Part shown: piece after piece, positions 944 through 16,751 of the stretch | Layout: each line of letters opens with the position of its first letter | Position numbering within the stretch: position 1 is the stretch's first letter | Source of the DNA: a virus | Lineage: Duplodnaviria > Heunggongvirae > Uroviricota > Caudoviricetes | Virus record (IMG/VR): IMGVR_UViG_3300031555_003801 | Coordinates: 1-64,000 of that record | Direction: 5' to 3' (one strand) | DNA: 64,000 nucleotides | The notes under the pieces: model-generated | Seen by the model: the letters and a program-made list of their open reading frames with translations, nothing else | What the model was told of the DNA's origin: nothing | The model's database searches: none | Made by a program: the position numbers and the translations under genes

Positions 944-1712
944 TTATGCTTATTGTACTATAGTAACAGATAAAAAATATATTCCTTATATTATTAGAAC
1001 GTAGCAAAGATTAAAATATCTTCAATCAAAATATCCTTTTATTATTTTAATAACAGAAAATATTTATAATAAATATAAGAATATAATAGAAAAAAATAAT
1101 ATTATATATAAAATTATTGATTCTTTATCTTTTGAAATTGAAGATAAACATTATAAAGATACTTTAAATAAATTTCAGATTTTAAATTTAATAGAATATG
1201 AAATTGTTTTATTTCTAGATGCAGATATTATTATTTATAATAATATAGATAATGTTTTTAAAGAATATAATTTTTCAAAAAATAAACCTTTTTATTTATT
1301 TTGTAAAAATTTTAAACAAAAAATAATTCCAGGTGTTTATGGAGCTTATTTTTTCTGTCGACCCAATAAAGAACTTTATAATAAATATATATTAAACAAT
1401 AATATAATAAAAAATATAGAAAATGATTAGGCTTTTTTAAATATTTACTTTTATAACTGTTTATCAAATATAAAATCTGATGATACTATTATTCATAAAA
1501 ATTGTATTCATTTTGCAGGACAATTGAAATTAGCAGATTTATAGTTTTTTTCATTTTTTAAAAATTTTTTTATTGACTGGGAAGAAAAAACATTTAATTC
1601 TTTTTTAGATGATGAAAAAAATATTGATAATTTACAAAAATTAATAATTATTGCTGTACAAACTGAAAAAGAATTAAATAAAATAATAAAAAAAATAAAT
1701 TATAAATTTTAA
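936..1712 (+). CDS. GT8 glycosyltransferase paralog, 3 in-frame TAG codons (1002, 1428, 1542)
   Basis: Codon-by-codon translation from ATG 936 to TAA 1710-1712. Motifs AYCTIVTDKKYIPYII and LFLDADIIIY (DxD). It is a tandem paralog of 134..943 and overlaps its stop. Confidence 0.55.
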
Positions 1713-1837
1713 TTGATTTTTTAAAAAATATATGATATAATATATTATAATAAAAATTAAGAGAGGAAAATTTTAGAAGTTTTCCTCTCTTGGATATGTA
1801 TTTTTAATAAAAATTTTTATTTAAGAATTTTTATTAA

Positions 1838-1952
1838 AGGCACATACAGCAAATCCTCAATTGCGAGAATGGCTCAATGGTAGAGCATAAGTCTGATAAA
1901 CTTACGGTTATTGGTTCGAATCCAATTTTTTGCACAAAATTGAAAGGTGCCT
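1838..1952 (+). repeat. Hairpin-flanked element 'a': inverted repeat AGGCAC/GTGCCT with conserved ACAGCAAA just 3' of the left arm; encloses an intact tRNA-Ile
   Basis: ggcacat-ACAGCAAA at 1839-1853 and gtgcct at 1947-1952. Member of an 8-copy family (see findings). Confidence 0.5.
1863..1934 (+). tRNA. tRNA-Ile (anticodon GAT)
   Basis: Hand-folded cloverleaf. Acceptor gcgagaa/tttttgc (2 G-U). D arm gctc-aatggta-gagc. Anticodon arm taagt-ctGATaa-actta. T arm attgg-ttcgaat-ccaat. Confidence 0.65.
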
Positions 1953-1969
1953 AGAAAAAATATCATAAT

Positions 1970-1998
1970 TTGAAAAATTAAAAAAAATATGATATAAT
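1970..1998 (+). promoter_or_regulatory. sigma70-like promoter: TTGAAA-N17-TATAAT, extended -10 (TGaTATAAT)
   Basis: ttgaaa 1970-1975, 17-nt A-rich spacer ending atatga, tataat 1993-1998. Member of a recurrent promoter family. Confidence 0.6.
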
Positions 1999-2137
1999 AT
2001 TTATATAATAAAGGTTAAAAAACTTTTATTAAAAAATCCTATTTTATATAGGTTGGTGCGGTCGCATTTCCTTTCCGCCATAATGAACGGAAAACGCATA
2101 GGTTAAAAGGTTCCTATTCAAAAAAACCTATAAATAT

Positions 2138-2213
2138 GGGATTGTAGCTCTAGCGGGAGAGCGCCTGGCTTGCATCCAGGAGGTCGTGGGTTCAAATCCC
2201 ACCAGTTCCACCA
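2138..2213 (+). tRNA. tRNA-Ala (anticodon TGC), CCA encoded
   Basis: Acceptor gggattg/cagttcc. D arm gctc-tagcggga-gagc. Anticodon arm cctgg-ctTGCat-ccagg. T arm gtggg-ttcaaat-cccac. 3' acca. Confidence 0.75.
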
Positions 2214-2309
2214 GAAGCGTCGGTTAATGATATCTATGCCGAATAGCCAAAGAGAAGTTCTCAATACGGGTTGCAAACTGTTGCGATAAAATATTCTCCG
2301 CTTTGCCAT

Positions 2310-2384
2310 GTCTCCTTAGTTCAACGGACAGAATATTTGGCTACGAACCAGAAGATGAAGGTTCGATTCCTTTGGGGGATACCA
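2310..2384 (+). tRNA. tRNA-like, probable tRNA-Arg (anticodon ACG), irregular D arm
   Basis: Anticodon arm tttgg-ctACGaa-ccaga. T arm gaagg-ttcgatt-ccttt. CCA present. The acceptor needs 3 G-U pairs and the D arm is unclear. Confidence 0.35.
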
Positions 2385-2471
2385 CAATTATCTAAAAAAC
2401 TATATGAAGTCAAGTTTCAGTTTCTTCTTTCCTTTCTTATTTGGCTGTTTTAAAGACTTCTTAAAAATTTT

Positions 2472-2593
2472 GCTAGACACTTACAGCAAAACATATTGGG
2501 AACAATATATCGTGAGTTCGAGTCTCACTCCGTCCGCCATTAAATTGGACAGATCGCCTAGTTGGTAAGGCAATTATATTTTGAGTGTCTAGC
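2472..2593 (+). tRNA. Candidate circularly permuted tRNA-Pro (anticodon TGG): 3' half precedes 5' half, whole unit enclosed by 9-bp inverted repeat GCTAGACAC/GTGTCTAGC and preceded by ACAGCAAA
   Basis: 3' half: T arm gtgag-ttcgagt-ctcac (2512-2528), acceptor 3' strand tccgtcc + g + CCA (2529-2539). 7-nt linker ttaaatt. 5' half: acceptor 5' strand ggacaga (2547-2553, pairs with tccgtcc with 1 A-C), D arm gcct-agttggta-aggc, anticodon-stem strand attat. Both halves carry ATT at the junction; the joined loop would be aTTGGga. Confidence 0.45.
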
Positions 2594-2627
2594 AAAATTT
2601 TTAAGCAAAAGTAAAAAATCTTTTATT

Positions 2628-2655
2628 TGAAAATTTTATAAAAAAATGTTATAAT
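2628..2655 (+). promoter_or_regulatory. sigma70-like promoter TTGAAA-N17-TATAAT (extended -10 TGtTATAAT)
   Basis: ttgaaa 2627-2632, tataat 2650-2655. Confidence 0.6.
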
Positions 2656-2822
2656 ATATTATAATAAAAAATAAAAATTGGTAGTACCCAGAAAATTCCG
2701 GGCATTGGGAGATGGGTCTAAAGGAACAAGTGACCTTATGAAGCGTAGGAATTACCAATTTATATTAGGTGGGAACCAGCCTTGATCCTCTTAATTTAAG
2801 AGTCTAAAATGGTCTTTAATAT

Positions 2823-2894
2823 TGGGGCGTCGCCAAGTGGTAAGGCACAGGGTTTTGATCCCTGCATCCGTAGGTTCGAATCCTACCGCCTCAG
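2823..2894 (+). tRNA. tRNA-Gln (anticodon TTG)
   Basis: Acceptor tggggcg/cgcctca. D arm gcc-aagtggtaa-ggc. Anticodon arm caggg-ttTTGat-ccctg. T arm gtagg-ttcgaat-cctac. Confidence 0.7.
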
Positions 2895-2896
2895 CG

Positions 2897-2955
2897 GTAT
2901 CAAGAGATAAACCTTCACGTGGTGATACTGATTTCGACAGATTATCTCAAAAAAA
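2897..2955 (+). repeat. Copy 1 of a ~55-nt structured element (GAGATAA ... TTATCTC stem around ACCTTCACGTGGTGATACTGATTTCGACAGA), followed by an A-run
   Basis: Near-identical to 10812-10866 (1 substitution). A diverged third copy at 5044-5100 has compensatory stem changes. Each copy follows an RNA gene 3' end. Confidence 0.5.
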
Positions 2956-2979
2956 TAAATAAAAAGGAGCTATTTAATT

Positions 2980-3597
2980 ATGGCATACATTTATAAAATT
3001 ACTAATTAGATTAATCAAAAATCTTATATTGGAAAAACTTCTAAAATAAATCCACAAAGAAGATGGATGGAACATAAAGCAGATAGTAATAATCCTAATA
3101 GAAATCATAGAGCTTTATATAAAGCTATGAATAAATATGGAATAGATAATTTTATTTTTGAAATTATTGAAGAAACTAATTTGCCAGAAGAACGAGAAAT
3201 ATATTATATACAATATTATAATACTTATCATAATGGTTATAATGAAACTCTCGGCGGAGATGGTGGTAAATATTTAGATTTACCAGAACAAGAAATTTGT
3301 AAATTCTATTTAAAAAATAGAAATTTAAAAGATACCGCTGAGTTTTTTAATCATGATCAATTAACTATTAAACAAGTATTATATAAATATAATATAGAAA
3401 TTATTTCTTCTTATGAAGTTTTAAAAGAAAAAACTTCTAAACCAGTTGCGAAATTAGATAAAAATACAGAAGAAATAATTGAAATTTATCCATCAGTTAT
3501 TGAAGCAGAAAGACAAAATTCATGTCATTCACATATAAAAGATGTTTGTCATGGAAAAAGAAAAACTGCTGGCGGATTTAAATGGAAATTTATATAA
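2980..3597 (+). CDS. GIY-YIG homing endonuclease, 1 in-frame TAG (3007)
   Basis: MAYIYKITN*INQKSYIGKT...RRWMEH (GIY-YIG motifs) continuing into the ORF-track frame 3067..3597. RBS AAGGAG at 2965. Lies inside the tRNA array. Confidence 0.7.
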
Positions 3598-3598
3598 T

Positions 3599-3674
3599 GG
3601 GATTATAGCTCAAAAGTGAAGAGCGATGGTCGAAAGATTGGAGGTTGTGAGTTCAAATCTCACTAATCCCACCA
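3599..3674 (+). tRNA. tRNA-like gene with non-pairing anticodon stem (possible pseudo-tRNA)
   Basis: Acceptor gggatta/taatccc is perfect. D arm gctc-aaaagtgaa-gagc. T arm gtgag-ttcaaat-ctcac. CCA present. The region atggtcgaaagattgga does not form an anticodon stem. Confidence 0.35.
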
Positions 3675-3771
3675 ACGGGCAGAAGTGTAGCAAATATGTG
3701 GCTGCCAAGAGAAGAAAACAAACCACGATGTGCGGGCAGTTGGGGACCTAACCCTAGCTGTAATTTAATAA

Positions 3772-3836
3772 AAAGATGCTAACAGCGATCTTAATGCAAG
3801 CATGCAAATCCTTCCAAGATTTAATAATAGCATCTT
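3772..3836 (+). repeat. Hairpin-flanked element 'h': AAAGATGCTA / TAGCATCTT inverted repeat with ACAGCGA after the left arm
   Basis: Variant member of the ACAGCAAA hairpin family. Confidence 0.4.
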
Positions 3837-3864
3837 GTATTTTCTTCCAAAAGGAGGAAAAAAA

Positions 3865-4146
3865 ATGTAGAATGAGATTTTAAATTTCATTAAACGACGT
3901 TGGAGTATTGACGCAAATTGGACTAATGGAAATTGTTTATGGTTTGCCAAAATTCTTCAATTACGCTTTCCGCAAATTCAAATATATTACCTTCCAATTA
4001 TAGGTCATTTTATTGTTTCTGATGGAGAAAATTACTATGATTGGAATGGAATTTATCTTCCAGAAGAAGAACCAATTAATTGGGAGGAATTGCGGAAAAG
4101 CGATTTTTTATGGGCTGAACGATTGATAAGAGATTGTTGGCTCTGA
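3865..4146 (+). CDS. Small hypothetical protein (93 aa) whose second codon is TAG (ATG TAG AAT...)
   Basis: Strong RBS AAGGAGGA 3851-3858. Reading frame M*NEILNFIKRRWSIDANWTNGNCLWFAKILQ...RDCWL with stop TGA 4144-4146. Confidence 0.4.
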
Positions 4147-4149
4147 TAT

Positions 4150-4235
4150 AGGTGGGCGGCAGAGTTGGAGAGCTGCGCCGGACTGTAAATCCGGTGCCTC
4201 AGGCTGAGTGGGTTCGAATCCCACCCCACCTACCA
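4150..4235 (+). tRNA. tRNA-Tyr (anticodon GTA), class II (long variable arm)
   Basis: Acceptor aggtggg/cccacct. Anticodon arm ccgga-ctGTAaa-tccgg. Variable arm tgcctcaggctgag. T arm gtggg-ttcgaat-cccac. CCA present. Confidence 0.75.
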
Positions 4236-4374
4236 TATATGTCATTTGCGCAATGACCTCGTTGGGAGAAAGGTCCCTCACGTTCAATACGAGAAACATA
4301 GCGGCCTCTATACTTTTCGCTTATCCGTTCTCTTCGTATATGCAGAAAGGCTATAAAAAGTTGAACATAATATA

Positions 4375-4448
4375 CCCTTAGTAGTCTAGTGGTAGGACGA
4401 CAGATTGTGATTCTGTTTGCGGCAGTTCAATTCTGCCCTAGGGGACCA
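4375..4448 (+). tRNA. tRNA-His (anticodon GTG)
   Basis: Acceptor cccttag/ctagggg. D arm gtc-tagtggtag-gac. Anticodon arm acaga-ttGTGat-tctgt. T arm ggcag-ttcaatt-ctgcc. CCA present. Confidence 0.7.
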
Positions 4449-4453
4449 ATATG

Positions 4454-4533
4454 TAGGCACATGTACCAAGGCTGGCGACGGAGTCTCCAAAATTCCGTGT
4501 GGTGGGTTCGATTCCCAACTGTCTATGCCAAAA
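4454..4533 (+). tRNA. tRNA-like sequence (canonical T arm and 3' CCA, unresolved D/anticodon arms)
   Basis: T arm tggg-ttcgatt-ccca followed by tgtctat-g-cca. Possible acceptor partner gtaggca. The anticodon region cggagtctccaaaattccg has an over-long loop. Confidence 0.3.
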
Positions 4534-4549
4534 AATAAAAATCAAAAAT

Positions 4550-4578
4550 TTGATTTTTATAAAAAAATATTGTATAAT
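4550..4578 (+). promoter_or_regulatory. sigma70-like promoter TTGATT-N17-TATAAT
   Basis: ttgatt 4550-4555, tataat 4573-4578 (ttgTATAAT). Confidence 0.55.
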
Positions 4579-4725
4579 ATATATACAATAAAAAAATAAA
4601 TAAAAATACTGAAAAAACTTGGATCCCATAAGTTGATTTAGTAAAGTGAGGGAATGGGTATAGGCCTCCGCTTTTAAAATGGCATTGAAAAATATGTACT
4701 GCTAAATCTTAGGTATTTTTTATAT

Positions 4726-4800
4726 GGTTTATTAGTTCATCGGTTAGAATGCCGGTTTGTCAGGCCGGAGAGGCGGGTTCGATTCCCGCATAAACCGCCA
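4726..4800 (+). tRNA. tRNA-Asp (anticodon GTC)
   Basis: Acceptor ggtttat/ataaacc. Anticodon arm ccggt-ttGTCag-gccgg. T arm gcggg-ttcgatt-cccgc. CCA present. Confidence 0.75.
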
Positions 4801-5043
4801 ATTTGCCCAATTAAATCTTGTATGGAGATTATAGTGGCTTTGGTCGGCCTCGGACCTAAGTAATGGCGATGAGGATATTTTTGAGATTGATTGGTATGCT
4901 CTTCACAGGTTTAGAAGAAACTAAAGATTGCGTATTACCCCCGGACGGTTAAGATTTTCAGATAAGGGTTAAGTTAGGTAAGAAAATCAATTGCATGCAA
5001 GGGTTTCATCATTTCCCTCACTGCGGTGGAAAAATGATAAATG

Positions 5044-5100
5044 ACTCACTATGTAAAAGAACCTTCTCGTGGTGTGAGTTGATTTCGACAGATACTTTTA
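5044..5100 (+). repeat. Diverged copy 3 of the ~55-nt structured element: stem GTAAAAG/CTTTTAC around AACCTTCTCGTGGTGTGAGTTGATTTCGACAGATA
   Basis: Core conserved with copies at 2897 and 10812. The outer stem sequence is different but still complementary (covariation). Confidence 0.45.
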
Positions 5101-5706
5101 CAAAAAAATAAATGCTAAATAACTCAGTGCTAAACTGTATCTCGCAGATATGGCTGAGGTATGCGGAAAATGGTCGGCAGAAAACGAAGCAGGGATACCT
5201 GTTGATACTGGCCCGCTGGTTCTAAGGTGACGAAGTTCCAGAAGAGGAGAGAACTCCCAAACGAAACGCATAGCATTTCATATATCGCAAATAAAAGCAG
5301 TAAGCGAATGGGCGAGGCAATAGAAAGCTCTGTGAATAGCGGAGCCGAATCCAAGTTAGGGTTTAGCTGGTGACTGTATCAATCCTTGGAAATACCAACA
5401 ACTCGTTTGGCCGTGAAGCAGAGAAATCTGTGTATAACATTTGCGCGCAACGTCCGAGTAGGTCAAGGCTATATTGCAATTCAAATTTTTGAAAGTTCTT
5501 ATTTGTTGTAGAAGAATTAACAAGAAATTTACTGAATTGTGGCTGAAAGGTGTGGGTAATCAATCCCGCATAGGACATTGGCTTTTAAAGCTGGGTTAAA
5601 AAAGTCACTGGGGTAGCTCCCCTAGGCTCAGATTTAACTCCCTATTGGCTGAATATATTTGAAGATATGTGACGTAGAACGAAGGTTCATTTAGCATTTT
5701 TTTTAT

Positions 5707-5780
5707 GCGGTATTGGTGTAGAGGTAACATAAGAGCCTTCCAAGCTTGGGTCGCGGGTTCGATTCCCGCATACCGCTCCA
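5707..5780 (+). tRNA. tRNA-Gly (anticodon TCC)
   Basis: Acceptor gcggtat/ataccgc. Anticodon arm agagc-ctTCCaa-gcttg. T arm gcggg-ttcgatt-cccgc. CCA present. Confidence 0.65.
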
Positions 5781-5784
5781 TTAT

Positions 5785-5858
5785 GTGCTAGATTCTTTGC
5801 GGCGAGGAAGTGGTCTGCAAAACCATCAGAGTTGGTTCGACTCCAACCTAGCACTCCA
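5785..5858 (+). tRNA. tRNA-Cys (anticodon GCA)
   Basis: Acceptor gtgctag/ctagcac is perfect. Anticodon arm gtggt-ctGCAaa-accat. T arm gttgg-ttcgact-ccaac. CCA present. Confidence 0.7.
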
Positions 5859-5934
5859 AAAATAATTTGCCGGCATGGCGCAATGGTAGCGCAGGACATT
5901 TGTAATGTCAAGGCTGGGGGTTCAAGTCCCTCTG
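5859..5934 (+). tRNA. tRNA-Thr (anticodon TGT)
   Basis: Acceptor gccggca/tgccggc. D arm gcgc-aatggta-gcgc. Anticodon arm ggaca-ttTGTaa-tgtca. T arm ggggg-ttcaagt-ccctc. CCA present. Confidence 0.7.
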
Positions 5935-6087
5935 CCGGCTCCACTTCGCAGGATGATACTTGCGACAATAACTAATTAGATAACTTCTATCCTCTTTGGG
6001 AATGTTATTTGTGGATAGTCGTATAATAAACATTCCAATTATATAAAATGCCGAATTGGCCATCTGATTCGGCATTTATAAAAATGA

Positions 6088-6164
6088 TGCGGGGTAGACC
6101 AGTGGCTAAGTCGTTAGGCTCATAACCTAAAAATCGAGGGTTCGAGTCCCTCCCGCCGCAACCA
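6088..6164 (+). tRNA. tRNA-Met/fMet/Ile2-type (anticodon CAT)
   Basis: Anticodon arm ttagg-ctCATaa-cctaa is perfect. T arm gaggg-ttcgagt-ccctc. Acceptor tgcgggg/cgccgca has 1 mismatch. CCA present. Confidence 0.6.
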
Positions 6165-6180
6165 GTTAAAAAATCATAAT

Positions 6181-6209
6181 TTGAAAATTTAAAAAAATTA
6201 TGATATAAT
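6181..6209 (+). promoter_or_regulatory. sigma70-like promoter TTGAAA-N17-TATAAT
   Basis: ttgaaa 6181-6186, tataat 6204-6209 (tgaTATAAT). Lies upstream of hairpin element 'c'. Confidence 0.6.
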
Positions 6210-6263
6210 ATTTATATAATAAAAATTTTTAGGCATATACAGCAAATTGGTTTTTTCTTACAA

Positions 6264-6340
6264 ATAGTCTGCAAAACTAATGGTTGTTGGTTCGAGTCCA
6301 ACCTTGAGATTTTATCTCAAGTAGCTCAATTGGGAGAGCT
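6264..6340 (+). tRNA. Candidate circularly permuted tRNA-Cys (anticodon GCA): anticodon arm, T arm and acceptor 3' strand are followed by a 5-nt loop and then the acceptor 5' strand and D arm
   Basis: Anticodon arm atagt-ctGCAaa-actaa (6264-6280). T arm gttgg-ttcgagt-ccaac (6286-6302). Acceptor 3' cttgaga (6303-6309). Loop t+ttta. Acceptor 5' tctcaag (6315-6321) is the exact reverse complement. D arm gctc-aattggga-gagc (6324-6339). Leader ttctta (6255-6260) pairs with trailer taagaa (6344-6349), bringing positions 26/27 together. ACAGCAAA at 6239-6246. Confidence 0.5.
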
Positions 6341-6366
6341 TAATAAGAATATGTGTCTAGAATTAT

Positions 6367-6441
6367 TGGGGGGTGGCGCAATGGCGGCGCGGGTGGCTGT
6401 TAACCACAAGGCTGCGGGTTCGAGTCCCGCCCTCCCAGCCA
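6367..6441 (+). tRNA. tRNA-Asn (anticodon GTT)
   Basis: Acceptor tgggggg/cctccca (1 G-U). Anticodon loop ctGTTaa. T arm gcggg-ttcgagt-cccgc. CCA present. Confidence 0.7.
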
Positions 6442-6445
6442 TTAT

Positions 6446-6522
6446 GGTTCTATAGTGTAATAGGTAAACACATCAGGTTTTCAACCTGAAAAGTCTGGGT
6501 TCGATCCCCAGTAGAATCACCA
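6446..6522 (+). tRNA. tRNA-Glu (anticodon TTC)
   Basis: Acceptor ggttcta/tagaatc. D arm gtgt-aataggtaa-acac. Anticodon arm tcagg-ttTTCaa-cctga. T arm ctggg-ttcgatc-cccag. CCA present. Confidence 0.75.
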
Positions 6523-6789
6523 GGAAAACAATAATTAAAGAAATTGACAAAGGGAAGCCTTTTAAGAGAAAGTACCTGTACTATCTCGGATTAGCGGTTT
6601 ATTGTACCATAGTATACGGGTTTAGGTCGCCGCCATTGACGGGTCGCATAAGCGTCTATAAATAAAAGGTGTGCGTCTTGGTTTGGTAGTAAAATACGAT
6701 AGTCCATGTAGCGTAAGCGAAGTATAAACTACCACTATGAGTTGATAAATAATATGCTTGTTGTTTATCAGCTCTATTTTTTTCTCTTT

Positions 6790-6877
6790 GGAGGAGTACT
6801 CAAGTGGTTAAGAGGGCAGTTTGCTAAACTGTTAGGGTGTAACAGCCGCGTGGGTTCGAACCCCACCTCCTCCGCCA
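6790..6877 (+). tRNA. tRNA-Ser (anticodon GCT), class II
   Basis: Acceptor ggaggag/ctcctcc is perfect. Anticodon arm gcagt-ttGCTaa-actgt. Long variable arm. T arm gtggg-ttcgaac-cccac. CCA present. Confidence 0.75.
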
Positions 6878-6888
6878 AAAATCTTAAT

Positions 6889-6917
6889 TTGAAAAATTTA
6901 AAAAAATATGATATAAT
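6889..6917 (+). promoter_or_regulatory. sigma70-like promoter TTGAAA-N17-TATAAT
   Basis: ttgaaa 6889-6894, tataat 6912-6917. Immediately followed by hairpin element 'd'. Confidence 0.6.
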
Positions 6918-6926
6918 ATTTATATA

Positions 6927-7000
6927 AAGATGGTTACAGCAAATATTTTGATATAACACATTTAATTAGGGATTAAAAGCGTATTATAATAAACCATCTT
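6927..7000 (+). repeat. Hairpin-flanked element 'd': AAGATGGTT / AACCATCTT with ACAGCAAA (6936-6943)
   Basis: 9-bp inverted repeat. It starts about 10 nt downstream of the -10 element and ends 8 nt before the split tRNA. Confidence 0.5.
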
Positions 7001-7007
7001 GCATTAT

Positions 7008-7572
7008 GTCCCATTAGCTCAGTAGGCTAGAGCACGTGACTTTTTAGACTCATGTAGATTGACAATTACTCAAAGAGGTGAAAAAATATGTTGAGTAGTC
7101 ATTTTATAGGAGAAATTACAGAACAGCAAGTGGCAGTTGAATTCTTAAAATTAGGTATTTTAGTTTCGAAGCCATTAGTACAAAGTTCGAAGTATGATTT
7201 TATAGCGGATATAAATCATAAACTTTATAAAATTCAAGTAAAAACTGGAACTTATAAAGAAGATGCTTATTTAGAATTTGCTACAAGTACAAGTCATACA
7301 AATACTAAAGGAACATTAAATCTTTCTTATTCAGAAGATGATGTTGATTTCTTTGCTACAATGCATGAAGGACAATGTTATTTAGTTCCTTATCATCTTT
7401 GTGGTAAAAGAATCCAAAGAATAAGATTTGTTCCAACTAAAAATGGACAAACAAAAGGAATTTTGTTTGCGAAAGATTTTCATTTAGAGGATATAGTAAA
7501 AACTTTGTAATTGTCATTCTGAAGGACTAAAAAATCACGGTGTCCGCAGTTCGAGTCTGCGATGGGACACCA
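7008..7572 (+). tRNA. tRNA gene (probably tRNA-Lys TTT) split in the anticodon loop by a ~490-bp ORF-containing insertion (intron-like)
   Basis: 5' exon: acceptor gtcccat (7008-7014), D arm gctc-agtaggcta-gagc, anticodon-stem strand cgtga (7035-7039). 3' exon: tcacg (7535-7539, exact complement), variable gtgtc, T arm cgcag-ttcgagt-ctgcg, acceptor atgggac (exact complement) + a + CCA (7562-7572). The insertion's ends pair into an extended rod (tttttag/ctaaaaa and tgacaattac/gtaattgtca). Confidence 0.55.
7088..7510 (+). CDS. ORF inside the tRNA insertion: PD-(D/E)XK-like nuclease candidate (possible homing endonuclease)
   Basis: 140 aa. Motif YDFIADINHKLYKIQVKT resembles D...(E/Q)xK. RBS AAAGAGGTG upstream. 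A PD-(D/E)XK homing endonuclease in a tRNA-fMet group I intron (I-Ssp6803I) is a precedent. Confidence 0.45.
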   Translation: MLSSHFIGEITEQQVAVEFLKLGILVSKPLVQSSKYDFIADINHKLYKIQVKTGTYKEDAYLEFATSTSHTNTKGTLNLSYSEDDVDFFATMHEGQCYLVPYHLCGKRIQRIRFVPTKNGQTKGILFAKDFHLEDIVKTL

Positions 7573-7711
7573 TTTATTAGTCCACTATGTGGATCAACAG
7601 CGTTAACATGGATTTGTAAGTTAAACTACCACCGACGGAATTCTATGAATGAAGGTATGTGGCTTAGTGGCAAACGCTATATAAGAAGGCAAAGTAAACT
7701 TACTATAATAT

Positions 7712-7788
7712 GTCCCTGTAATCCAACAGGTAGAGATAGTGGACTTAAAATCCATCCAGTGTGAGTTCGAATCTCACCAGGGACACCA
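7712..7788 (+). tRNA. tRNA with anticodon TAA (Leu-type anticodon) but class I architecture (5-nt variable loop)
   Basis: Acceptor gtccctg/cagggac is perfect. Anticodon arm gtgga-ctTAAaa-tccat. T arm gtgag-ttcgaat-ctcac. Discriminator A. CCA present. Confidence 0.5.
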
Positions 7789-7793
7789 AATAT

Positions 7794-7870
7794 GTCCCAT
7801 TAGCCCAATTGGCAGAGGCGTCTGACTTAGGATCAGATCAGTGCAGGTTCGAATCCTGTGTGGGGCACCA
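7794..7870 (+). tRNA. tRNA with anticodon TAG (Leu CUN-type anticodon) but class I architecture
   Basis: Acceptor gtcccat/gtggggc (2 G-U). Anticodon arm tctga-ctTAGga-tcaga is perfect. T arm gcagg-ttcgaat-cctgt. CCA present. Confidence 0.55.
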
Positions 7871-7876
7871 TTTAAA

Positions 7877-7971
7877 AAGACGCTAGAATACAGCAATTAT
7901 TTTAGGTTAATAGAATTTTGTTGAAGAAGATTTTTAGATGGTTCGAATCCATCACAAGAACCTAGCGTCTT
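7877..7971 (+). repeat. Hairpin-flanked element 'g': AAGACGCTAG / CTAGCGTCTT (10 bp) with ACAGCAA; encloses an orphan tRNA 3' half (T arm gatgg-ttcgaat-ccatc + acaagaa)
   Basis: The inverted repeat, the motif and the T-arm-like segment are all visible in the sequence. No matching 5' half was found. Confidence 0.45.
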
Positions 7972-8098
7972 GTTTTGATTTATTCTGTTACTTAAATTGA
8001 GCGGATGTAGCCGAATTGGTATAGATACATGATTCTAGAGATTTGAATTATTTTACCTATAAATAATAATATTATTAGTTTAAAAGAATATAAATAAA

Positions 8099-8947
8099 AT
8101 GGAATTAATTGATTTTACAAAAGAGATAAATAATGCTTAGTTATTTGTAGGTTCTGGTAAAAAGAAAAAATTATTAATTAATTATAACAATGAATAGTAT
8201 ATAATTAAATTTGCTAAAAATATATGTACAAATAATCAAGGTATTATTACAAATTAGAGAGGCTTTTCAGAATATTTAGCTTGTCAAATTTATCAAAATG
8301 CAGAATTTTTTGTTTAGGAAACTTTATTAGGTTATTATAAAAATAAAAATAATATTTTAACTGCTTGTAAACTTGCAAATAATAAAATTACAGATTTTAG
8401 TTTTTTTATGGAAAAATATGATTATAAAGTAAGTAATAAATTAAATGATATTTTATTAGTTTGTAAATATATTAATATAGAAGAATACTTTTGGGATATG
8501 TTTATTATAGATGCTTTTATTGGTAATACAGATCGTAATACTGGTAATTGGGGATTATTTTATAATGAAAAATTAGATAAAATATTAAGCGTTCCTTTTA
8601 TTTTTGACTGTGAAAATAGTTTTTATCCCAATATGAATGATTATATTTTATAGAATTATTGTCAAAAAGAATTAAAAGAAATAGCTTATAATTATCCAGA
8701 ATCAAAAATAATTTATAATAATAAAAATATAAATTATTTTAATTTTATTTCTTCTTTAGAGAATGAAGATTGTAATGAAGCTTTAAAAAGAATTGTTCCT
8801 AAAATTGATATAGAAAAAATTATTTAGATTATAAATGATCTTCCACTTGAAAAAATATAGAAAAATTTTTTAATAACAATTCTTCAAAAAAGAAAAGAAT
8901 TATTAAATCTTGTTTTAATAAAACTTAATGAAAGAGAAAACCAATGA
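8099..8947 (+). CDS. HipA-like (HipA/CtkA kinase family, divergent catalytic motif) protein with 7 in-frame TAG codons
   Basis: VGSGKKKKL (P-loop-like) and FIIDAFIGNTDRNTGNWG (HipA C-terminal motif region, with D-R-N in place of D-x-H). Same frame as ORF-track fragment 8408..8653. Overlaps the E1 start (ATGA). Confidence 0.5.
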
Positions 8948-9675
8948 TTAGATATAAAGAAAATATTGATGAATTTAATTTAACAGAAAAAATTCAAAAT
9001 CAATTATTAACAAAAAATATTGCAGTAATTGGTTGTGGCGGACAAGGTGGATATACTTTAGAATTTCTTATTCGATTAGGAATTAAATCTATTATTTTTT
9101 GGGATGGAGATTATTTTGAAGAATCTAATCTTAATAGACAAATAGGCTGTTTAATTCCAACGTTACAAAAAAACAAAGCTTTATCTATGAAAGAAAGGCT
9201 TCAACAAATTAATCCAGAAGTAGAATTAATTTGTTGTGATTGGTATTTTGGAGATAAAGAAGATGATAAAGAGAAACTATCTAAAGTAGATTTTATTTTT
9301 GATGCTGCAGATTGTAATTATAATATTTTTAAATTAAGAACAATTTTAAGAGAAGTCATTATTGAATATAATATTCCTATTATTCGTTTCCCTATAAATA
9401 TATTAGGAGGTTATGTTCATATTGAAACTATGAAAGATTTAAGCCATTTTGATTTTATTACGCATAGATTAATTTATCAAAATAAAAATGAAAAAATTTT
9501 TCCAGAAGCAGTAAGTCAACCCGCTTATAAATGTGCAATTATTGCGGGCGAAGCTGTAAATCAAATGGTTCAATATTTTTCTAATTGTAGATATGCGGCT
9601 ATTGATACAACTTTAAATATTGATCTTTATCATCATAAATATGTTGAAGAAGATAGATTTGGAATTATTCCATAA
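8944..9675 (+). CDS. ThiF/MoeB/E1-like adenylyltransferase
   Basis: Rossmann motif IAVIGCGGQGGY. Signature FEESNLNRQ. 243 aa. Confidence 0.75.
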   Translation: MIRYKENIDEFNLTEKIQNQLLTKNIAVIGCGGQGGYTLEFLIRLGIKSIIFWDGDYFEESNLNRQIGCLIPTLQKNKALSMKERLQQINPEVELICCDWYFGDKEDDKEKLSKVDFIFDAADCNYNIFKLRTILREVIIEYNIPIIRFPINILGGYVHIETMKDLSHFDFITHRLIYQNKNEKIFPEAVSQPAYKCAIIAGEAVNQMVQYFSNCRYAAIDTTLNIDLYHHKYVEEDRFGIIP

Positions 9676-9678
9676 TTT

Positions 9679-9759
9679 GGGGACATAGCTCAGTTGGTGA
9701 GAGCGCAGAGCTTATACCTCTGGAATCTGTCGAAGGTTCAAGTCCTTCTGTCCCTACCA
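9679..9759 (+). tRNA. tRNA-Ile (anticodon TAT), 9-nt variable loop
   Basis: Acceptor ggggaca/tgtccct. D arm gctc-agttggtga-gagc. Anticodon arm cagag-ctTATac-ctctg. T arm gaagg-ttcaagt-ccttc. CCA present. Confidence 0.55.
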
Positions 9760-9766
9760 TTTTTAT

Positions 9767-9839
9767 TAGACACAAACAGCAAAATATTTTATGTCAAGCA
9801 AGGAACTTTTAATTCTTATAATAGCTAATAAAGTGTCTA
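9767..9839 (+). repeat. Hairpin-flanked element 'e': TAGACAC / GTGTCTA with ACAGCAAA (9776-9783)
   Basis: Inverted repeat enclosing ~57 nt with no tRNA. Lies between tRNA-Ile(TAT) and tRNA-Ile(GAT). Confidence 0.5.
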
Positions 9840-9846
9840 GAAAATA

Positions 9847-9923
9847 TTGAGAAGTAGCTCAGATGGTTAGAGCGCAGGTCTGATAAACCTGAGGTCGTGA
9901 GTTCAATTCTCACCTTCTCAACC
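9847..9923 (+). tRNA. tRNA-Ile (anticodon GAT), second copy
   Basis: Acceptor tgagaag/cttctca is perfect. D arm gctc-agatggtta-gagc. Anticodon arm caggt-ctGATaa-acctg. T arm gtgag-ttcaatt-ctcac. CCA present. Confidence 0.75.
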
Positions 9924-9932
9924 ATATTAATA

Positions 9933-10009
9933 TCTGGGTATAGCTCAGTTTGGCAGAGCGCCTGATTTGGGTTCAGGAGGCCGCAAGTTCGAATCTTGCT
10001 ACTCAGACC
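9933..10009 (+). tRNA. tRNA-Pro (anticodon TGG), canonical copy
   Basis: Acceptor ctgggta/tactcag. D arm gctc-agtttggca-gagc. Anticodon arm cctga-ttTGGgt-tcagg. T arm gcaag-ttcgaat-cttgc. CCA present. Confidence 0.75.
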
Positions 10010-10325
10010 AGTCCACCGTTTATGTTTTCCTTTCCTACTTTTGGAACATAAGAATAAGGTGGAGAAAGTAGGGCCGCTTAACCGGTTTATATTTATTAGT
10101 AGGCTGCAGAGCCATGTGTATATAGTATTTTTAAATCTCGCAAAAGTCTCACGATATGTTAAGATATCGCGCTGCTGTAATATGTGAATAATGTGAGTAC
10201 GCAATTTTATAAATGAGTATCGGCCTTGGTGTGGATGTTGATGGAGAGGCGACACGGAGCTCTACTTCGTATCTTTGGTGTCAGAGGTTAATTGTCTAAA
10301 ATCGAGAAAATTTATAAAATTATGT

Positions 10326-10420
10326 GGAGGCGTACCGAAGTGGCTATAACGGCGCAGACTTGAAATCTGTTGTGTCAGCTAGTACCTGACGCGGGGGTTC
10401 AAATCCTCCCGCCTCCGCCA
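10326..10420 (+). tRNA. tRNA-Ser (anticodon TGA), class II
   Basis: Acceptor ggaggcg/cgcctcc is perfect. Anticodon arm gcaga-ctTGAaa-tctgt. Long variable arm. T arm ggggg-ttcaaat-cctcc. CCA present. Confidence 0.75.
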
Positions 10421-10463
10421 ATAACAATGAAGAGTTAAAGGCCTGTAAGGACTTTAACTATTA

Positions 10464-10813
10464 CGGGGCTGAAAATGGTTTCGACAGGGTTGTGAAAAAT
10501 TTTAAATCCGCAGGTGTGATTTACCTTACAAATCAAACTTAAATATAAACGCAAAACCTTATAGATTAGCTGCCTAATTAATTGGTAGGCCTAAACGACA
10601 TGCTTGTTGTTCAGCTAAATGTCTGCGGCTCGAGGAATAGAACAATCACCCCAAAGTTTCTTAATTCTTTTTCAAAAATTAAGTGGTGGATACGATGTTT
10701 GTAAAGTGTCTTTACAAAACCCTGAGTTGGTTATCTCTAAAATAACCTATTGCGTAAGTATGATTTAAAATTAGTAACAGTTTTGGACGCGAGTTCGACT
10801 CTCGCCAGCTCCA
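10464..10813 (+). ncRNA. ssrA: tmRNA (ssrA-like transfer-messenger RNA)
   Basis: 5' end GGGGCTGAAAATGGTTTCGACAGGG (tmRNA tRNA-like domain). 3' end ggacgcgag-ttcgact-ctcgc-cagctcc-a (T arm + acceptor pairing with GGGGCTG). Internal tag-like reading frame GCA AAA CCT TAT AGA TTA GCT GCC TAA (…AKPYRLAA*) ending in the typical LAA + TAA. Confidence 0.65.
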
Positions 10814-10866
10814 GGCATCAAGAGATAAACCTTCACGTGGTGATGCTGATTTCGACAGATTATCTC
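10812..10866 (+). repeat. Copy 2 of the ~55-nt structured element (immediately 3' of the tmRNA)
   Basis: catcaagagataaaccttcacgtggtgatGctgatttcgacagattatctcaaaaa. One substitution relative to copy 1. Confidence 0.5.
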
Positions 10867-10898
10867 AAAAATTGTTCTCATTTTCTTTATTTCTATTA

Positions 10899-11052
10899 AG
10901 ACTCAATACAGCAAAATTATAAAACTTGTTTAGGCAATATATAAACTCTACAGAAAATGTGCTGGTGACACGCTTTCACTGTTGTTATTATTTGATAGTA
11001 AGAAAAACAGGGATAATAACGCTAATAAAAACTGTTAAATTCTTTTGAGTCT
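10899..11052 (+). repeat. Hairpin-flanked element 'f': AGACTCAA / TTGAGTCT enclosing ~140 nt, with ACAGCAAA at 10908-10915
   Basis: 8-bp inverted repeat. The insert has no ORF. The suppressor tRNA follows directly. Confidence 0.45.
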
Positions 11053-11061
11053 AGTATTAAA

Positions 11062-11151
11062 GCTCCGTAGTCTAATGGTAAAACGCCGGACTCTAAATCC
11101 GTTATACTCTCTGAAAGGGTAATCTGGGTTCGAATCCCAGCGGGGCCGCCA
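11062..11151 (+). tRNA. Amber suppressor tRNA (anticodon CTA, reads UAG), class II with long variable arm
   Basis: Anticodon arm (c)cgga-ctCTAaa-tccg(t) with U33 and A37. Variable stem tactct/agggta. T arm ctggg-ttcgaat-cccag. Acceptor agctccg/cggggcc (1 A-C at 1-72) + g + CCA. The D arm is irregular. Confidence 0.6.
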
Positions 11152-11160
11152 ATTTTTAAT

Positions 11161-11193
11161 AGCCAGTTTATATTTTTATAAACTGGCTTTTTG
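11161..11193 (+). terminator. Rho-independent terminator closing the tRNA array
   Basis: agccagtttata-ttttt-ataaactggct followed by tttt. Confidence 0.7.
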
Positions 11194-11201
11194 TTATTTA
11201 T

Positions 11202-11230
11202 TTGAAAAAAATTAAAAAATATGATATAAT
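11202..11230 (+). promoter_or_regulatory. sigma70-like promoter TTGAAA-N17-TATAAT
   Basis: ttgaaa 11202-11207, tataat 11225-11230 (tgaTATAAT). Confidence 0.6.
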
Positions 11231-11264
11231 AAACTATGATAAAAAATAAAAAAGGATAAAATAT

Positions 11265-12230
11265 ATGGAATTAATTGACTTTACGAAAGCAATAAATAAT
11301 GCTTAGTTATTTAAACCTACTGGTAACAATAAAAAAAAATTAAAAATTATTTATAATAATGAAGAATATATAATAAAAACTTCAAAATATACAATTGAAC
11401 AAGATAAAGAAAATAAATATAAAATGATTGAATTGTATAATACAATATCGGAATATTTAGGTTGTAAAATTTATGATAGTTTAAATATACCTGCACAAAA
11501 AACTTTATTAGGATATTATTAGTATAAAAATAAAAAACAAATGATAATTGCTTGTAAAAATTTTAATATTGATGATAGTTTTCTTCCTTTTGGTATATTC
11601 TTTAATAAAGAACGACAACAAGATAATAATAAATTGCAATCTTTAGAAATAAAAAATATTATAAAAAAAATTGAAGAACAAAATATTTATGATTCTCAAA
11701 AAATAAAAAAACGTTTTTGGGATATGTTTATTATTGATGCTTTTATTGATAATCCCGATAGAACTTCTGGAAACTGGGGTTTTATAAAAGATAAAAAAAC
11801 AAATACAATCATAAATTTTTGTCCAATTTTTGATTGTGAATAGAACATATTTTTAGAAATACTATTAAAAAATAAAAAACAATTATTAAATAATTAGAAT
11901 AAAATAAATTTTTTAGCTATATCGCCTTTTAAAAAATCTTATTTAATTTATGATAATAAAGTTATAAATTATTTTAATTTTATTTCCTCTTTAGAAAATG
12001 AAGATTGTAATGAAGCTTTAAAAAGAATTGTTCCTAAAATTGATATGGAAAAAATTATTTAGATTATAAATGATCTTCCACTTGAAGAATTCCAAAAAAA
12101 TAATTTAATAATAGTATTAAAAAAAAGAAAAGAATTATTATTAGATTTTCCTTTATTTCTCTTACAAAATATAGATAAAAGAGAAAAATACGAAAAAAAA
12201 ATAGAAAGGATAATATATGATAAATTATAA
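11265..12230 (+). CDS. HipA-like paralog with 5 in-frame TAG codons
   Basis: MELIDFTKAINNA*... FIIDAFIDNPDRTSGNWG. Same frame as ORF-track fragment 11541..11843. Its C-terminal ~125 bp is a near-exact direct repeat of the 3' end of 8099..8947. Stop TAA at 12228-12230 overlaps the ycaO start. Confidence 0.5.
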
Positions 12231-14058: not shown

Positions 14059-14087
14059 TTGAAAATTTTCAAAAAAAATGTTATAAT
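14059..14087 (+). promoter_or_regulatory. sigma70-like promoter TTGAAA-N17-TATAAT
   Basis: ttgaaa 14059-14064, tataat 14082-14087 (tgtTATAAT). Confidence 0.6.
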
Positions 14088-15947: not shown

Positions 15948-16751
15948 TTGTTTTATAAGAAAGGATTTTTAATGAAATATTTTATTGATTTTGAAGCCAA
16001 TAGTCCGACGAATGAAATCATTGAAATAGGTTGCGTTTCTGAAAAAAATGATTGTTTTAAAATGTATGTTAAACCAACTACACCTATTGACCCATTTATT
16101 ACGGGATTAACGCATATTACAAATAAAATGGTAGAAGATTCTCCTTTAATTGATGAAGCAATTATGATTTTTTATAATTGGCTTATCAATACGCAGGAAC
16201 ATTTTTCTTGGAAAGATACTACTTTTTATTGCTATGGAAATGCGGATCATTCATTTATTCAGGCTTCAGCACAAACTTGCGAAACAACTGATTCTTATAT
16301 GATTCTTGCGGCTATGGCTATGTCTTTGAAAGATTTTACCAAGAAAGTAAATCATTTCTTTAAAGATAGTATTTCTTTAATCCAGGCATTAAATTATTTT
16401 AAAACCTCGGAAACAGCTTGGGAGCAGTGTCATGATGCTCTTGAGGATGCGCTAGCTTTAAAAGAATTATATAAAGTTTTACCAAAAAAATATTCATTAC
16501 CTTGTTCTCCATTTGTTATTAAAACAGAAATGGGTGTTAGAAGAAATAAAAAAGGTTATGGATATACTGATTATATTAGTTTAACAGAAGCTACTGAATG
16601 TGTTGTAAAAGAAATATTAACAACATCACCAAATTCTAATGTTAAATCTGAAAATATTAGAAAAAGAATTATTCATGCTATTAATAAGAAAAGTTCTTAT
16701 ATGGGATATAAATGGAAATATGTAAAGATTGAGAAAGGGGATGAAGAATAA
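15948..16751 (+). CDS. DEDDh-family 3'-5' exonuclease (DnaQ/RNase T-like)
   Basis: Exo I motif FIDFEANSP..EIIEIG. Exo III motif HDALEDALAL. The true start is probably the internal Met at MKYFIDFE. Confidence 0.65.
   Translation: MFYKKGFLMKYFIDFEANSPTNEIIEIGCVSEKNDCFKMYVKPTTPIDPFITGLTHITNKMVEDSPLIDEAIMIFYNWLINTQEHFSWKDTTFYCYGNADHSFIQASAQTCETTDSYMILAAMAMSLKDFTKKVNHFFKDSISLIQALNYFKTSETAWEQCHDALEDALALKELYKVLPKKYSLPCSPFVIKTEMGVRRNKKGYGYTDYISLTEATECVVKEILTTSPNSNVKSENIRKRIIHAINKKSSYMGYKWKYVKIEKGDEE

Follow-up and report, generated by a model that had tools for sequence, protein, structure and literature searches.

Hairpin-flanked elements in a phage tRNA region as probable Y-RNA-like partners of a Ro60-like protein

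What are the short hairpin-flanked elements that recur among the transfer RNA (tRNA) genes of a tailed phage, and what reads the motif that they share? The question is raised by IMG/VR virus record IMGVR_UViG_3300031555_003801 (Caudoviricetes), of which we analysed the stretch of 64,000 nucleotides (nt) from position 1 to 64,000 (the window), and in which a first-pass annotation made from the letters of the DNA had listed eight such elements, a to h, each with the motif ACAGCAA or a variant of it after the left arm. We consider it likely that the stem and the ACAGCAA motif together are the binding handle of a Ro60-like protein of the DUF2828 family, encoded in the same window, and that the elements are Y-RNA-like partners of this protein. 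We favour this reading because the elements combine a closing stem, an invariant motif at the junction of its 5' strand, and an interior that varies and is often tRNA-like, and because copies of them stand beside a gene whose product is modelled with the fold of Ro60. This linkage, seen in the window and in unrelated phages, favours a protein-binding handle over the endonuclease recognition site that had also been entertained.

Eight elements built on one stem and one motif

All eight elements, including the motif variants of g and h, were recovered on the + strand where they had been annotated, using a script that searches for ACAGC[AG]A with an arm 0 to 5 nt upstream and the reverse complement of that arm downstream. 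They lie in an RNA island on the + strand, between 1.8 and 11.2 kb of an AT-rich window (16-30% GC). In this island (counted from 1700 to 11300) ACAGC[AG]A occurs nine times against 0.62 expected, an excess of about 15-fold, and none of 300 dinucleotide shuffles gave more than 4; in the window as a whole ACAGCAA is found 22 times against 7.5 expected, a count reached in 0 of 100 shuffles. An anchored stem accompanies eight of the nine island sites (binomial P from 3 × 10-5 to 5 × 10-7), with stem-score cut-offs of 16 to 21 and a chance level at which random anchor positions match the stem scores in 2-21% of cases; a cut-off of 14 was passed by 39% of random anchors. These counts contradict the proposition that the motif is no commoner beside inverted repeats than chance would have it. 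When one mismatch in the motif was allowed, the scan of the window added only h, already listed, and no other convincing copy.

Element a (1838 to 1952) is closed by 6 base pairs (bp) between AGGCAC (1838-1843) and GTGCCT (1947-1952; AGGCAC/GUGCCU in RNA), followed by the spacer at and by ACAGCAAA at 1846, and it encloses a full tRNA-Ile(GAU)-like cloverleaf (1863-1935, 72.5 bits), the acceptor of which is lengthened by a CAAUU/AAUUG helix. Element b (2462 to 2603) has its left arm, TGCTAGACACTT, at 2471-2482 and its right arm at 2583-2594, with the core stem UGCUAGACACUU/GAGUGUCUAGCA (2471-2594) and, with no spacer, ACAGCAAA at 2483; as folded by RNAfold, the stem reaches 22 bp over 2462-2603 (minimum free energy -48 kcal/mol, z = -7.0). 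Its cargo is a YrlA-like tRNA-like domain consisting of a T arm, a loop-closed acceptor ending in GCCA, and a D arm. In element h (3773 to 3836), which has a short cargo with no tRNA-like part, AAGATGCTA (3773-3781) pairs over 9 bp with TAGCATCTT (3828-3836; AAGAUGCUA/UAGCAUCUU in RNA) and leads directly into the variant motif ACAGCGAT (ACAGCGAU in RNA) at 3782.

The 12-bp stem of element c (6227 to 6362) is made by TTTTAGGCATAT (6227-6238) and ATGTGTCTAGAA (6351-6362; UUUUAGGCAUAU/AUGUGUCUAGAA in RNA), with ACAGCAAA following at 6239 without a spacer; it needs three G-U pairs and therefore forms only in RNA of the + strand (fold z = -3.7). The cargo of c is again a domain of YrlA-like form, which combines an anticodon-like arm (loop CUGCAAA) with a T arm, a closed acceptor and a D arm; the element starts 18 to 22 nt 3' of a near-consensus extended -10, part of a promoter-like site at 6181-6209 (+ strand, TTGAAA-17-TGnTATAAT) whose predicted transcript start lies about 10-15 nt 5' of the element. 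Element d (6927 to 7000), with an AU-rich cargo that has no tRNA-like part, begins 10 nt after the -10 hexamer of another promoter-like site; its arms are AAGATGGTT (6927-6935) and AACCATCTT (6992-7000; AAGAUGGUU/AACCAUCUU in RNA, 9 bp), and ACAGCAAA stands at 6936, with no spacer.

Two elements directly follow the 3' end of a tRNA, which, together with the extended -10 sequences ahead of c and d, agrees with what had been annotated about their starts. One of them, element g (7877 to 7971), pairs AAGACGCTAG (7877-7886) with CTAGCGTCTT (7962-7971; AAGACGCUAG/CUAGCGUCUU in RNA, 10 bp), has the spacer aat before ACAGCAAT (ACAGCAAU in RNA) at 7890, and carries a T-arm hairpin, GAUGG UUCGAAU CCAUC, ahead of its 3' arm (fold z = -4.4), so that its cargo is a degenerate tRNA-like domain in normal order. 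The other, element e (9766 to 9840), sits between tRNA-Ile(UAU) and tRNA-Ile(GAU) and encloses a short non-tRNA cargo within 8 bp between TTAGACAC (9766-9773) and GTGTCTAG (9833-9840; UUAGACAC/GUGUCUAG in RNA), with the spacer aa and ACAGCAAA at 9776. Element f (10899 to 11052), 154 nt in length and just 5' of a suppressor tRNA(CUA), holds a long non-tRNA cargo; its arms are AGACTCAA (10899-10906) and TTGAGTCT (11045-11052; AGACUCAA/UUGAGUCU in RNA, 8 bp), and the spacer t precedes ACAGCAAA at 10908.

The first-pass annotation had described a different inverted repeat for each element, and the arms do indeed differ and covary, yet those of the window copies have in common a core, W-AG(A/G)C, that always lies 8 nt from the motif, and the right arm finishes with GYCU-W, followed by G. 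The covariance-model search that it had called for was made with a model (R1) of 30 short copies, taken from other phages only and none from the window, with filters off for the window search. All eight elements are among the nine best matches of R1 in the window: e at 45.2 bits (E = 7.5 × 10-8), d at 42.8 (E = 2.7 × 10-7), h at 28.4 (E = 6.6 × 10-4), g at 27.7 (E = 9.7 × 10-4), b at 21.4 (E = 0.03), a at 18.4 (E = 0.15), c at 18.3, and f at 18.1, of which only the 5' part is found because the long interior is penalised. The remaining match (56168-56240, with ACAGCAAC; 26.4 bits, E about 0.002) lies inside a coding sequence and is probably a false positive, since its stem is poor and it has no AGAC core.

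Conservation, covariation and linkage to DUF2828

The family is widespread in phages. We examined 36 IMG/VR loci, fetched through their DUF2828 protein, and loci from eight GenBank phages, and found handle elements on the strand of the DUF2828 gene in many of them, the IMG/VR loci included. Bacillus phage PBC2 (locus L037) has seven copies, three of them immediately upstream of the DUF2828 gene; Listeria phage LP-048 (L038) has three immediately upstream; E. coli phage wV8 (L040) has three to four; and in Staphylococcus phage 6ec (L041) the first of three copies lies 20 nt past the end of the gene. The two copies of Campylobacter phage F367 (L042) end 22 nt before the gene, the three of Mycobacterium phage Wilder (L039) lie immediately downstream of a gene annotated 'Ro-like RNA binding protein', with no tRNA array, and the handle is also present in Sinorhizobium phage phiM7 (L044). 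Element size ranges from 50 to 172 nt, with a median of 89.

Some annotations of these loci coincide with the elements. The 'tRNA-Asn' of Wilder (L039 7534-7604) is the tRNA-like cargo of the middle element, where ARAGORN calls no tRNA; a small coding sequence, F367_017 (L042 6864-7001), overlaps two elements; and tRNA features of PBC2 (L037) are annotated opposite to the ARAGORN strand. All three are probable annotation errors in GenBank.

Across copies the handle has the consensus W-AGAC-NCWU-ACAGCAAW-U ... G-N-GUCU-W-G, the final G of which is present in 85% of copies, and ACAGCAA is invariant save for an occasional change of its first base (U/GCAGCAAA). The stem, in contrast to the invariant motif, varies by compensation, as AAGAC/GUCUU, UAGAC/GUCUA, GAGAC/GUCUC, UGGAC/GUCCA, AGGAA/UUCCU, AGGGU/ACCCU and CAAGC/GCUUG. 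Each of the seven outer pairs forms in 97-100% of 72 distinct copies and occurs in four Watson-Crick types, and the two inner positions are paired in about half; the covariation score is 0.847, against 0.216 in shuffles and 0.10-0.20 with slid partners. The stems in this count had been selected by pairing, which tells against it, and we therefore also ran an unbiased pattern on IMG/VR, AAGAC-N4-ACAGCAA-N35-65-GTCTTG, that is blind both to DUF2828 and to the inner stem. At least two more contiguous inner pairs were found in 90% of its 84 matches, compared with 14% by chance. Pairing of ACAGCAA with an internal complementary stretch was considered as well, from RNAfold or by eye, for g, f and the third Wilder copy, and was set aside as inconsistent between copies. 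The covarying outer pairs, the G-U pairs and the strict strand bias bear out the view of the first-pass annotation that this is a noncoding family acting at the level of RNA.

The linkage to DUF2828 was read from collections that had been searched by pattern. A DUF2828 gene is present in 28 of 80 stored IMG/VR stretches (1-15 kb) found in this way. In a collection of bacterial and archaeal genomes, where the scan mixes true and chance matches and the unpaired matches hence serve as an internal control, DUF2828 lies within about 4 kb in 24 of 42 loci with a paired stem versus 2 of 38 without (Fisher P = 6 × 10-7). In both collections together, 53 of 54 elements are on the strand of the DUF2828 gene, at a median distance of 190 nt and with 65% within 300 nt, and 12 of the 54 are downstream of it. 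The script places 71 elements on the gene strand and 7 opposite, and R1, applied to 35 DUF2828 loci, gave 50 matches at E <= 0.01, all 50 on the gene strand. Nine DUF2828 loci gave no R1 match within the flanks searched, where elements may be farther off or absent. The structure of the RNA, its conservation and covariation, and its genomic linkage to DUF2828 are directly supported by these observations.

The DUF2828 gene of the window (14154 to 15710, + strand), with a promoter-like site of its own at 14059-14087, encodes a protein of 518 amino acids with the Pfam domains DUF2828 (PF11443) and DUF7788 (PF25043), which belongs to PHROG 850, 'RNA-binding protein'. An AlphaFold2 (AF2) model built on an alignment of 47 homologues, with a predicted local distance difference test (pLDDT) score of 71.6, shows the fold of Ro60. 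In a Foldseek search of the PDB with this model, the ten best matches are all Ro60/TROVE proteins, with a probability of 0.98 to 1.00 and full-length alignment, including 9KOP (the best), 1YVR, 9L5Y (Ro60 of Thermus phage phiLo) and 2NVO (Deinococcus Rsr), and the protein models as a Ro60/TROVE ring with a von Willebrand factor A (vWA) domain. The fold is seen only through the alignment-based model and Foldseek: a single-sequence AF2 model was unusable (pLDDT 42.8), no Ro60 match came from searching the PDB by sequence or by profile, and the Pfam TROVE model does not match the DUF2828/DUF7788 protein, so that orthology to Ro60 is argued from the modelled fold.

Homologues of this protein are found by tblastn in 696 of 50,697 GenBank phage records (about 1.4%), to which thousands of metagenomic clusters can be added. 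The label 'Ro-like RNA binding protein' is carried by some of the GenBank homologues, and tRNA genes adjoin the gene in several of the records examined. In the window it is followed on its 3' side by genes for an RNase T-like exonuclease (15972-16751) and then an RNA ligase (16751-18169).

Cargos, the likeness to Y RNAs, and other readings

The Ro-binding motif of animal Y RNAs is GGUCCGA. The 5' and 3' ends of Y RNAs form a stem, the 5' strand of which carries in bacteria the motif GNCGAAN0-1G, the likely Ro60 site (PMC4201824), and the tRNA-like domain of the bacterial YrlA RNAs begins with the T arm, continues with a closed acceptor and finishes with the D arm (Chen et al. 2014, PMC4201824). 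All eight window copies have the closing stem round a large loop. As in YrlA (RF02553), this stem comes with a short conserved motif at the inner end of its 5' strand, the tRNA mimic of b, c and the second copy of Wilder follows the YrlA order of arms (in Wilder as seen by eye), and the RNAs are encoded beside a gene of Ro60 fold, often in multiple copies and within a like size range of 50-170 nt. The elements differ from YrlA in that most copies have no tRNA-like domain, in that ACAGCAA(A/U) occupies the position of GNCGAAN0-1G, with no CGAA-type motif in the elements, and in their partner, a DUF2828/DUF7788 protein matched to Ro60 by fold only.

In a relaxed Rfam scan the YrlA model matched c with 35.1 bits (E about 1 × 10-4) and b with 24.7 bits, against a gathering score of 69, and both alignments span the T arm, the acceptor-like hairpin and the D arm in YrlA order. 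The copies of Wilder, wV8 and LP-048 gave no YrlA match at E <= 0.1, elements a, d, e, f, g and h gave no family at E <= 1, and no family of Rfam 15 reached its threshold for the elements of the window, LP-048, Wilder or wV8. The first-pass annotation had read b and c as permuted tRNAs. Its account of the contents stands for the tRNA-Ile of a, the T arm of g and the lack of an RNA gene in d, e, f and h, but the order of parts in b and c, with a closed acceptor between T arm and D arm, is the one known from Y RNAs of the YrlA type. Permuted and split tRNA genes, as in the red alga Cyanidioschyzon and in Nanoarchaeum, likewise place the T arm and the 3' acceptor strand first and have transcript ends that pair; b and c, however, have an acceptor closed by a loop of 5-10 nt, with no bulge-helix-bulge and no ARAGORN tRNA call in either, b has a 6-nt loop where a 7-nt anticodon loop is expected, and the same closing stem in other elements encloses cargo that is not tRNA.

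The tRNA-Ile(GAU)-like cargo of a recurs in an element of PBC2 (13305-13427) and in one of an IMG/VR locus (L024, 8113-8227), both of which keep the D, anticodon and T arms but are without a proper acceptor stem. Besides the one enclosed in a, a free tRNA-Ile(GAU) is present in the window at 9848-9924. For these reasons, and in view of the CUGCAAA loop of c, the cargos seem to imitate particular tRNAs and not to be functional tRNAs themselves, though element a could still work as one. In a survey of 71 copies, a T-arm signature is seen in 25, and 44 lack any tRNA-like signature.

The nearest parallel with experimental support is Thermus phage phiLo, the canonical Ro60 of which binds two RNAs, Yrl1 and Yrl2, that are encoded upstream of its gene and have a stem between their 5' and 3' ends and a CGAA motif (PMC12135203). 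Here, as there, a phage gene of Ro60 fold has Y-like RNAs nearby, with the stem flanking a motif-bearing loop, and a structure of the phiLo protein (PDB 9KOP, also 9L5Y) is the best fold match of the window protein. In phiLo the protein is a canonical TROVE protein, the motif is CGAA and binding was demonstrated experimentally (PMC12135203), whereas in our case binding is inferred, and our family of elements is far larger and dispersed in tRNA arrays. Both the DUF2828 family and the ACAGCAA motif differ from their phiLo counterparts, and we take them to be a matched pair.

On the reading that we prefer, the elements would be genes for small non-coding RNAs of Y RNA build, or else segments processed out of the transcripts of tRNA arrays. 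A closing stem of 7-9 bp, with the consensus W-AGAC-NN ... NN-GUCU-W and a G after it, would join the two ends of each RNA, leaving ACAGCAA(A/U) single-stranded at the inner end of the 5' strand, and stem and motif would serve as a universal handle for loading the Ro60-like protein. The interior would then be a variable module, of YrlA type in b and c, a tRNA-Ile(GAU) look-alike in a, a degenerate tRNA in g, and a non-tRNA loop in d, e, h and f. By analogy with Ro60/Y-RNA particles, the cargo might tether the DUF2828 protein to other RNAs or enzymes or gate its access to them, candidates being the adjacent RNase T-like exonuclease and RNA ligase, tRNA-processing enzymes, and host nucleases that target tRNA. 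Binding by the DUF2828 protein, and with it the ends, stability and downstream function of these RNAs, is what we infer from the analogy.

Several points weigh against the handle being that of a Ro60-like protein. The ACAGCAA motif is unlike the canonical Ro-binding motif; the matches to Rfam YrlA stay below its threshold and cover no more than the tRNA-like domain; element a might simply be the precursor of a normal tRNA-Ile; roughly one in three of the fetched DUF2828 loci shows no element in the flanks examined; and the closest element in the window is 3.1 kb away from the DUF2828 gene. In addition, the habit of lying in tRNA arrays, common to DUF2828 genes and elements, partly confounds their linkage, a confound against which Wilder, 6ec and F367 argue.

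The main rival is that the stem and ACAGCAA are a processing or stability signal of phage tRNA-array transcripts, by which a host or phage factor releases or protects the enclosed RNA, with DUF2828 merely co-located. Such a signal would suit elements that lie among tRNAs, some right after tRNA 3' ends, that have cargos in part tRNA-like or tRNA-Ile, and that conserve the foot of their stem together with the G after it, as a cleavage site would. We nevertheless judge it unlikely. The motif is invariant across Gram-positive, Gram-negative and actinobacterial hosts with different RNases, which favours a reader encoded by the phage; DUF2828 is the sole consistently adjacent gene, and elements flank it without a tRNA array in Wilder, 6ec and F367; and the 44 cargos mentioned above have no tRNA-like part to release. 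Phage T5 is also instructive, as its RNAI, RNAIII, RNA1 and RNA2 (AY543070) are small stable RNAs, some of them tRNA-like, among phage tRNA genes as here. The tRNA region of T5 (24 tRNAs and several stable RNAs), however, is without the ACAGCAA handle. R1 had no match there at E <= 0.01, the script yielded no element of AGAC type, no common motif is known, and a tblastn search of the 49 kb of T5 examined did not detect DUF2828.

A second rival, in which the elements would be operators acting in cis, for example to autoregulate translation of the DUF2828 gene or of genes near it or to attenuate them, and not small RNAs acting in trans, seems to us very improbable as a full account. In phiM7 (L044 about 6950-6992) and Vibrio phage ValKK3 (L043 6964-7089) an ACAGCAA hairpin does lie over the 5' untranslated region or the start of the DUF2828 gene, which hints at autoregulation, and many copies are found 20-120 nt upstream of the gene. 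Set against this are the several copies per genome, some of them kilobases off with promoter-like sites of their own (c and d), the copies downstream of the gene (12 of 54), and the elaborate tRNA-like domains among the cargos. A cis-regulatory role is better seen as an addition to the protein-binding handle than as its rival, as one handle could serve both and the two are compatible.

That the elements are small mobile hairpins (resembling miniature inverted-repeat transposable elements or repetitive extragenic palindromes), circularly permuted tRNA genes or a chance pattern has next to no probability in our view: inverted repeats do enclose variable content, and the tRNA 3' part does precede the 5' part in b and c, but the arms differ between copies and covary, G-U pairs occur on one strand only, gene-strand copies outnumber the others 71 to 7 in the script count and 50 to 0 in that of the covariance model, no target duplications are seen, phages of hosts from different phyla keep the motif, b and c have their loop-closed acceptor and b no 7-nt anticodon loop, and shuffling rules out chance. 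The RNase III-like stem proposed in the first-pass annotation can likewise be put aside. Processing stems for RNase III have about 20 bp or more of double-stranded RNA, and those of the elements, which span 6-12 bp and share a core of 7 conserved pairs, are too short, only b reaching 22 bp. Intrinsic terminators were considered too; none of the eight elements appears in the terminator scan, and each is followed by G and mixed sequence, where such a terminator has a GC-rich hairpin and then a U tract.

Going further, and with more doubt than confidence, we suggest that DUF2828 proteins might constitute a second, phage-centred Ro60-like ribonucleoprotein system, in which a universal ACAGCAA handle would load the protein onto modular cargos, many of them mimics of particular tRNAs (such as Ile-GAU, or a Cys-GCA-like loop) that could serve as decoy, sensor or repair scaffold against the defence nucleases with which hosts target tRNA, together with neighbouring exonuclease, RNA ligase or RtcB genes. 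What we rate as novel is the combination of Y-RNA-like RNAs bearing a new handle with a divergent Ro60-like partner, widespread in phages and apparently uncatalogued; in the literature we found no description of the ACAGCAA motif, of this RNA family or of RNA partners of DUF2828, although an earlier mention is possible. The DUF2828/DUF7788 family gains a testable RNA partner, a candidate recognition motif and a tie to Ro60 biology. Unannotated gaps and odd 'tRNA' or small open reading frame calls in phage tRNA regions become interpretable, in Felix O1-like phages, Listeria phages like P100 and A511 (LP-048), phages of Staphylococcus, Campylobacter and Bacillus, and the Mycobacterium Wilder group. 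As the handle is simple, a stem and ACAGCAA, new non-coding RNAs can be found by scanning, and culturable phage systems allow one to ask what role a Ro-like particle has in infection and whether tRNA mimics take part in counter-defence.

The RNA island around the elements

The island itself is dense in RNA genes. ARAGORN finds 21 tRNA genes, Rfam adds matches at 3599-3671 (gathering score reached) and 4453-4526 (weak), and there is one transfer-messenger RNA (tmRNA). Promoter-like sites of the form TTGAAA-17-TGnTATAAT, which match the consensus at 11 of 12 positions plus the TG, partition the island into transcription units; besides the one ahead of c, sites of this class stand at 1970, 2627, 6889 (before d), 11202 and 14059 (before the DUF2828 gene), and their function as promoters is presumed from this consensus. 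A near-identity DNA search of GenBank phages found no relative of the island, just tRNA-sized matches, and a search for related loci by means of ThiF found none.

A ROOL RNA (RF03087) lies at 5099-5707 (Rfam, 337 bits); it is co-located with the elements, yet is an unrelated large RNA without the handle. In LP-048 a ROOL-like match (L038 6469-7020; 90 bits, just under the gathering score) is found 1 kb upstream of the DUF2828 gene, and on account of these two occurrences ROOL and the Ro-like system may travel together.

The suppressor tRNA with anticodon CUA that follows element f (11061-11151; labelled tRNA-Pyl by ARAGORN) coincides with 1-7 in-frame TAG codons in many open reading frames of the window, as noted for those in 1-12 kb, and for these two reasons TAG appears to be read as a sense codon in this phage. 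The DUF2828, YcaO and ThiF genes have no in-frame TAG. Protein genes embedded in the island encode two HipA_C-like paralogues rich in in-frame TAG (8099-8947 and 11265-12230), a ThiF-family protein (8944-9675), a YcaO protein (12217-14007) and a GIY-YIG endonuclease (2980-3597).

A tRNA-Lys(UUU) (7009-7570), at which ARAGORN makes no call, has its anticodon loop split by an insert of about 484 nt that encodes a PD-(D/E)XK endonuclease (PF11645, open reading frame 7088-7510) and has a noncoding part of about 60 nt; Rfam found no group I intron in it. Just 3' of element g, at 7992-8035, there is an apparent lone tRNA 5' half, comprising the acceptor strand and D arm with an anticodon-like loop, UUCUAGA, that contains CUA; no fitting 3' half is nearby. 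The GC-rich stretches between tRNAs (2040-2130, 2215-2305, 2690-2820, 3672-3770, 4236-4370, 4600-4725, 4800-5040, 5945-6085, 6523-6790, 7570-7710 and 10011-10325), which have no Rfam match at E <= 1, are probably more structured RNAs of some other kind.

Finally, an element of about 55 nt occurs in three copies, after tRNA-Gln (2896-2950), before ROOL (5043-5100) and after the tmRNA (10815-10870); it has no Rfam match and is present in just one other locus among 285 examined. By eye it forms two interleaved helices, a pseudoknot, with compensatory changes in the first (GUAUCA/UGAUAC, ACUCAC/GUGAGU and GCAUCA/UGAUGC) and in the second (GAGAUAA/UUAUCUC and GUAAAAG/CUUUUAC). Its loops AACCUUCNCGUGGUG and UGAUUUCGACAGAU are invariant, and UGAUUUCGACAGAU is similar to the 5' region of tmRNA.

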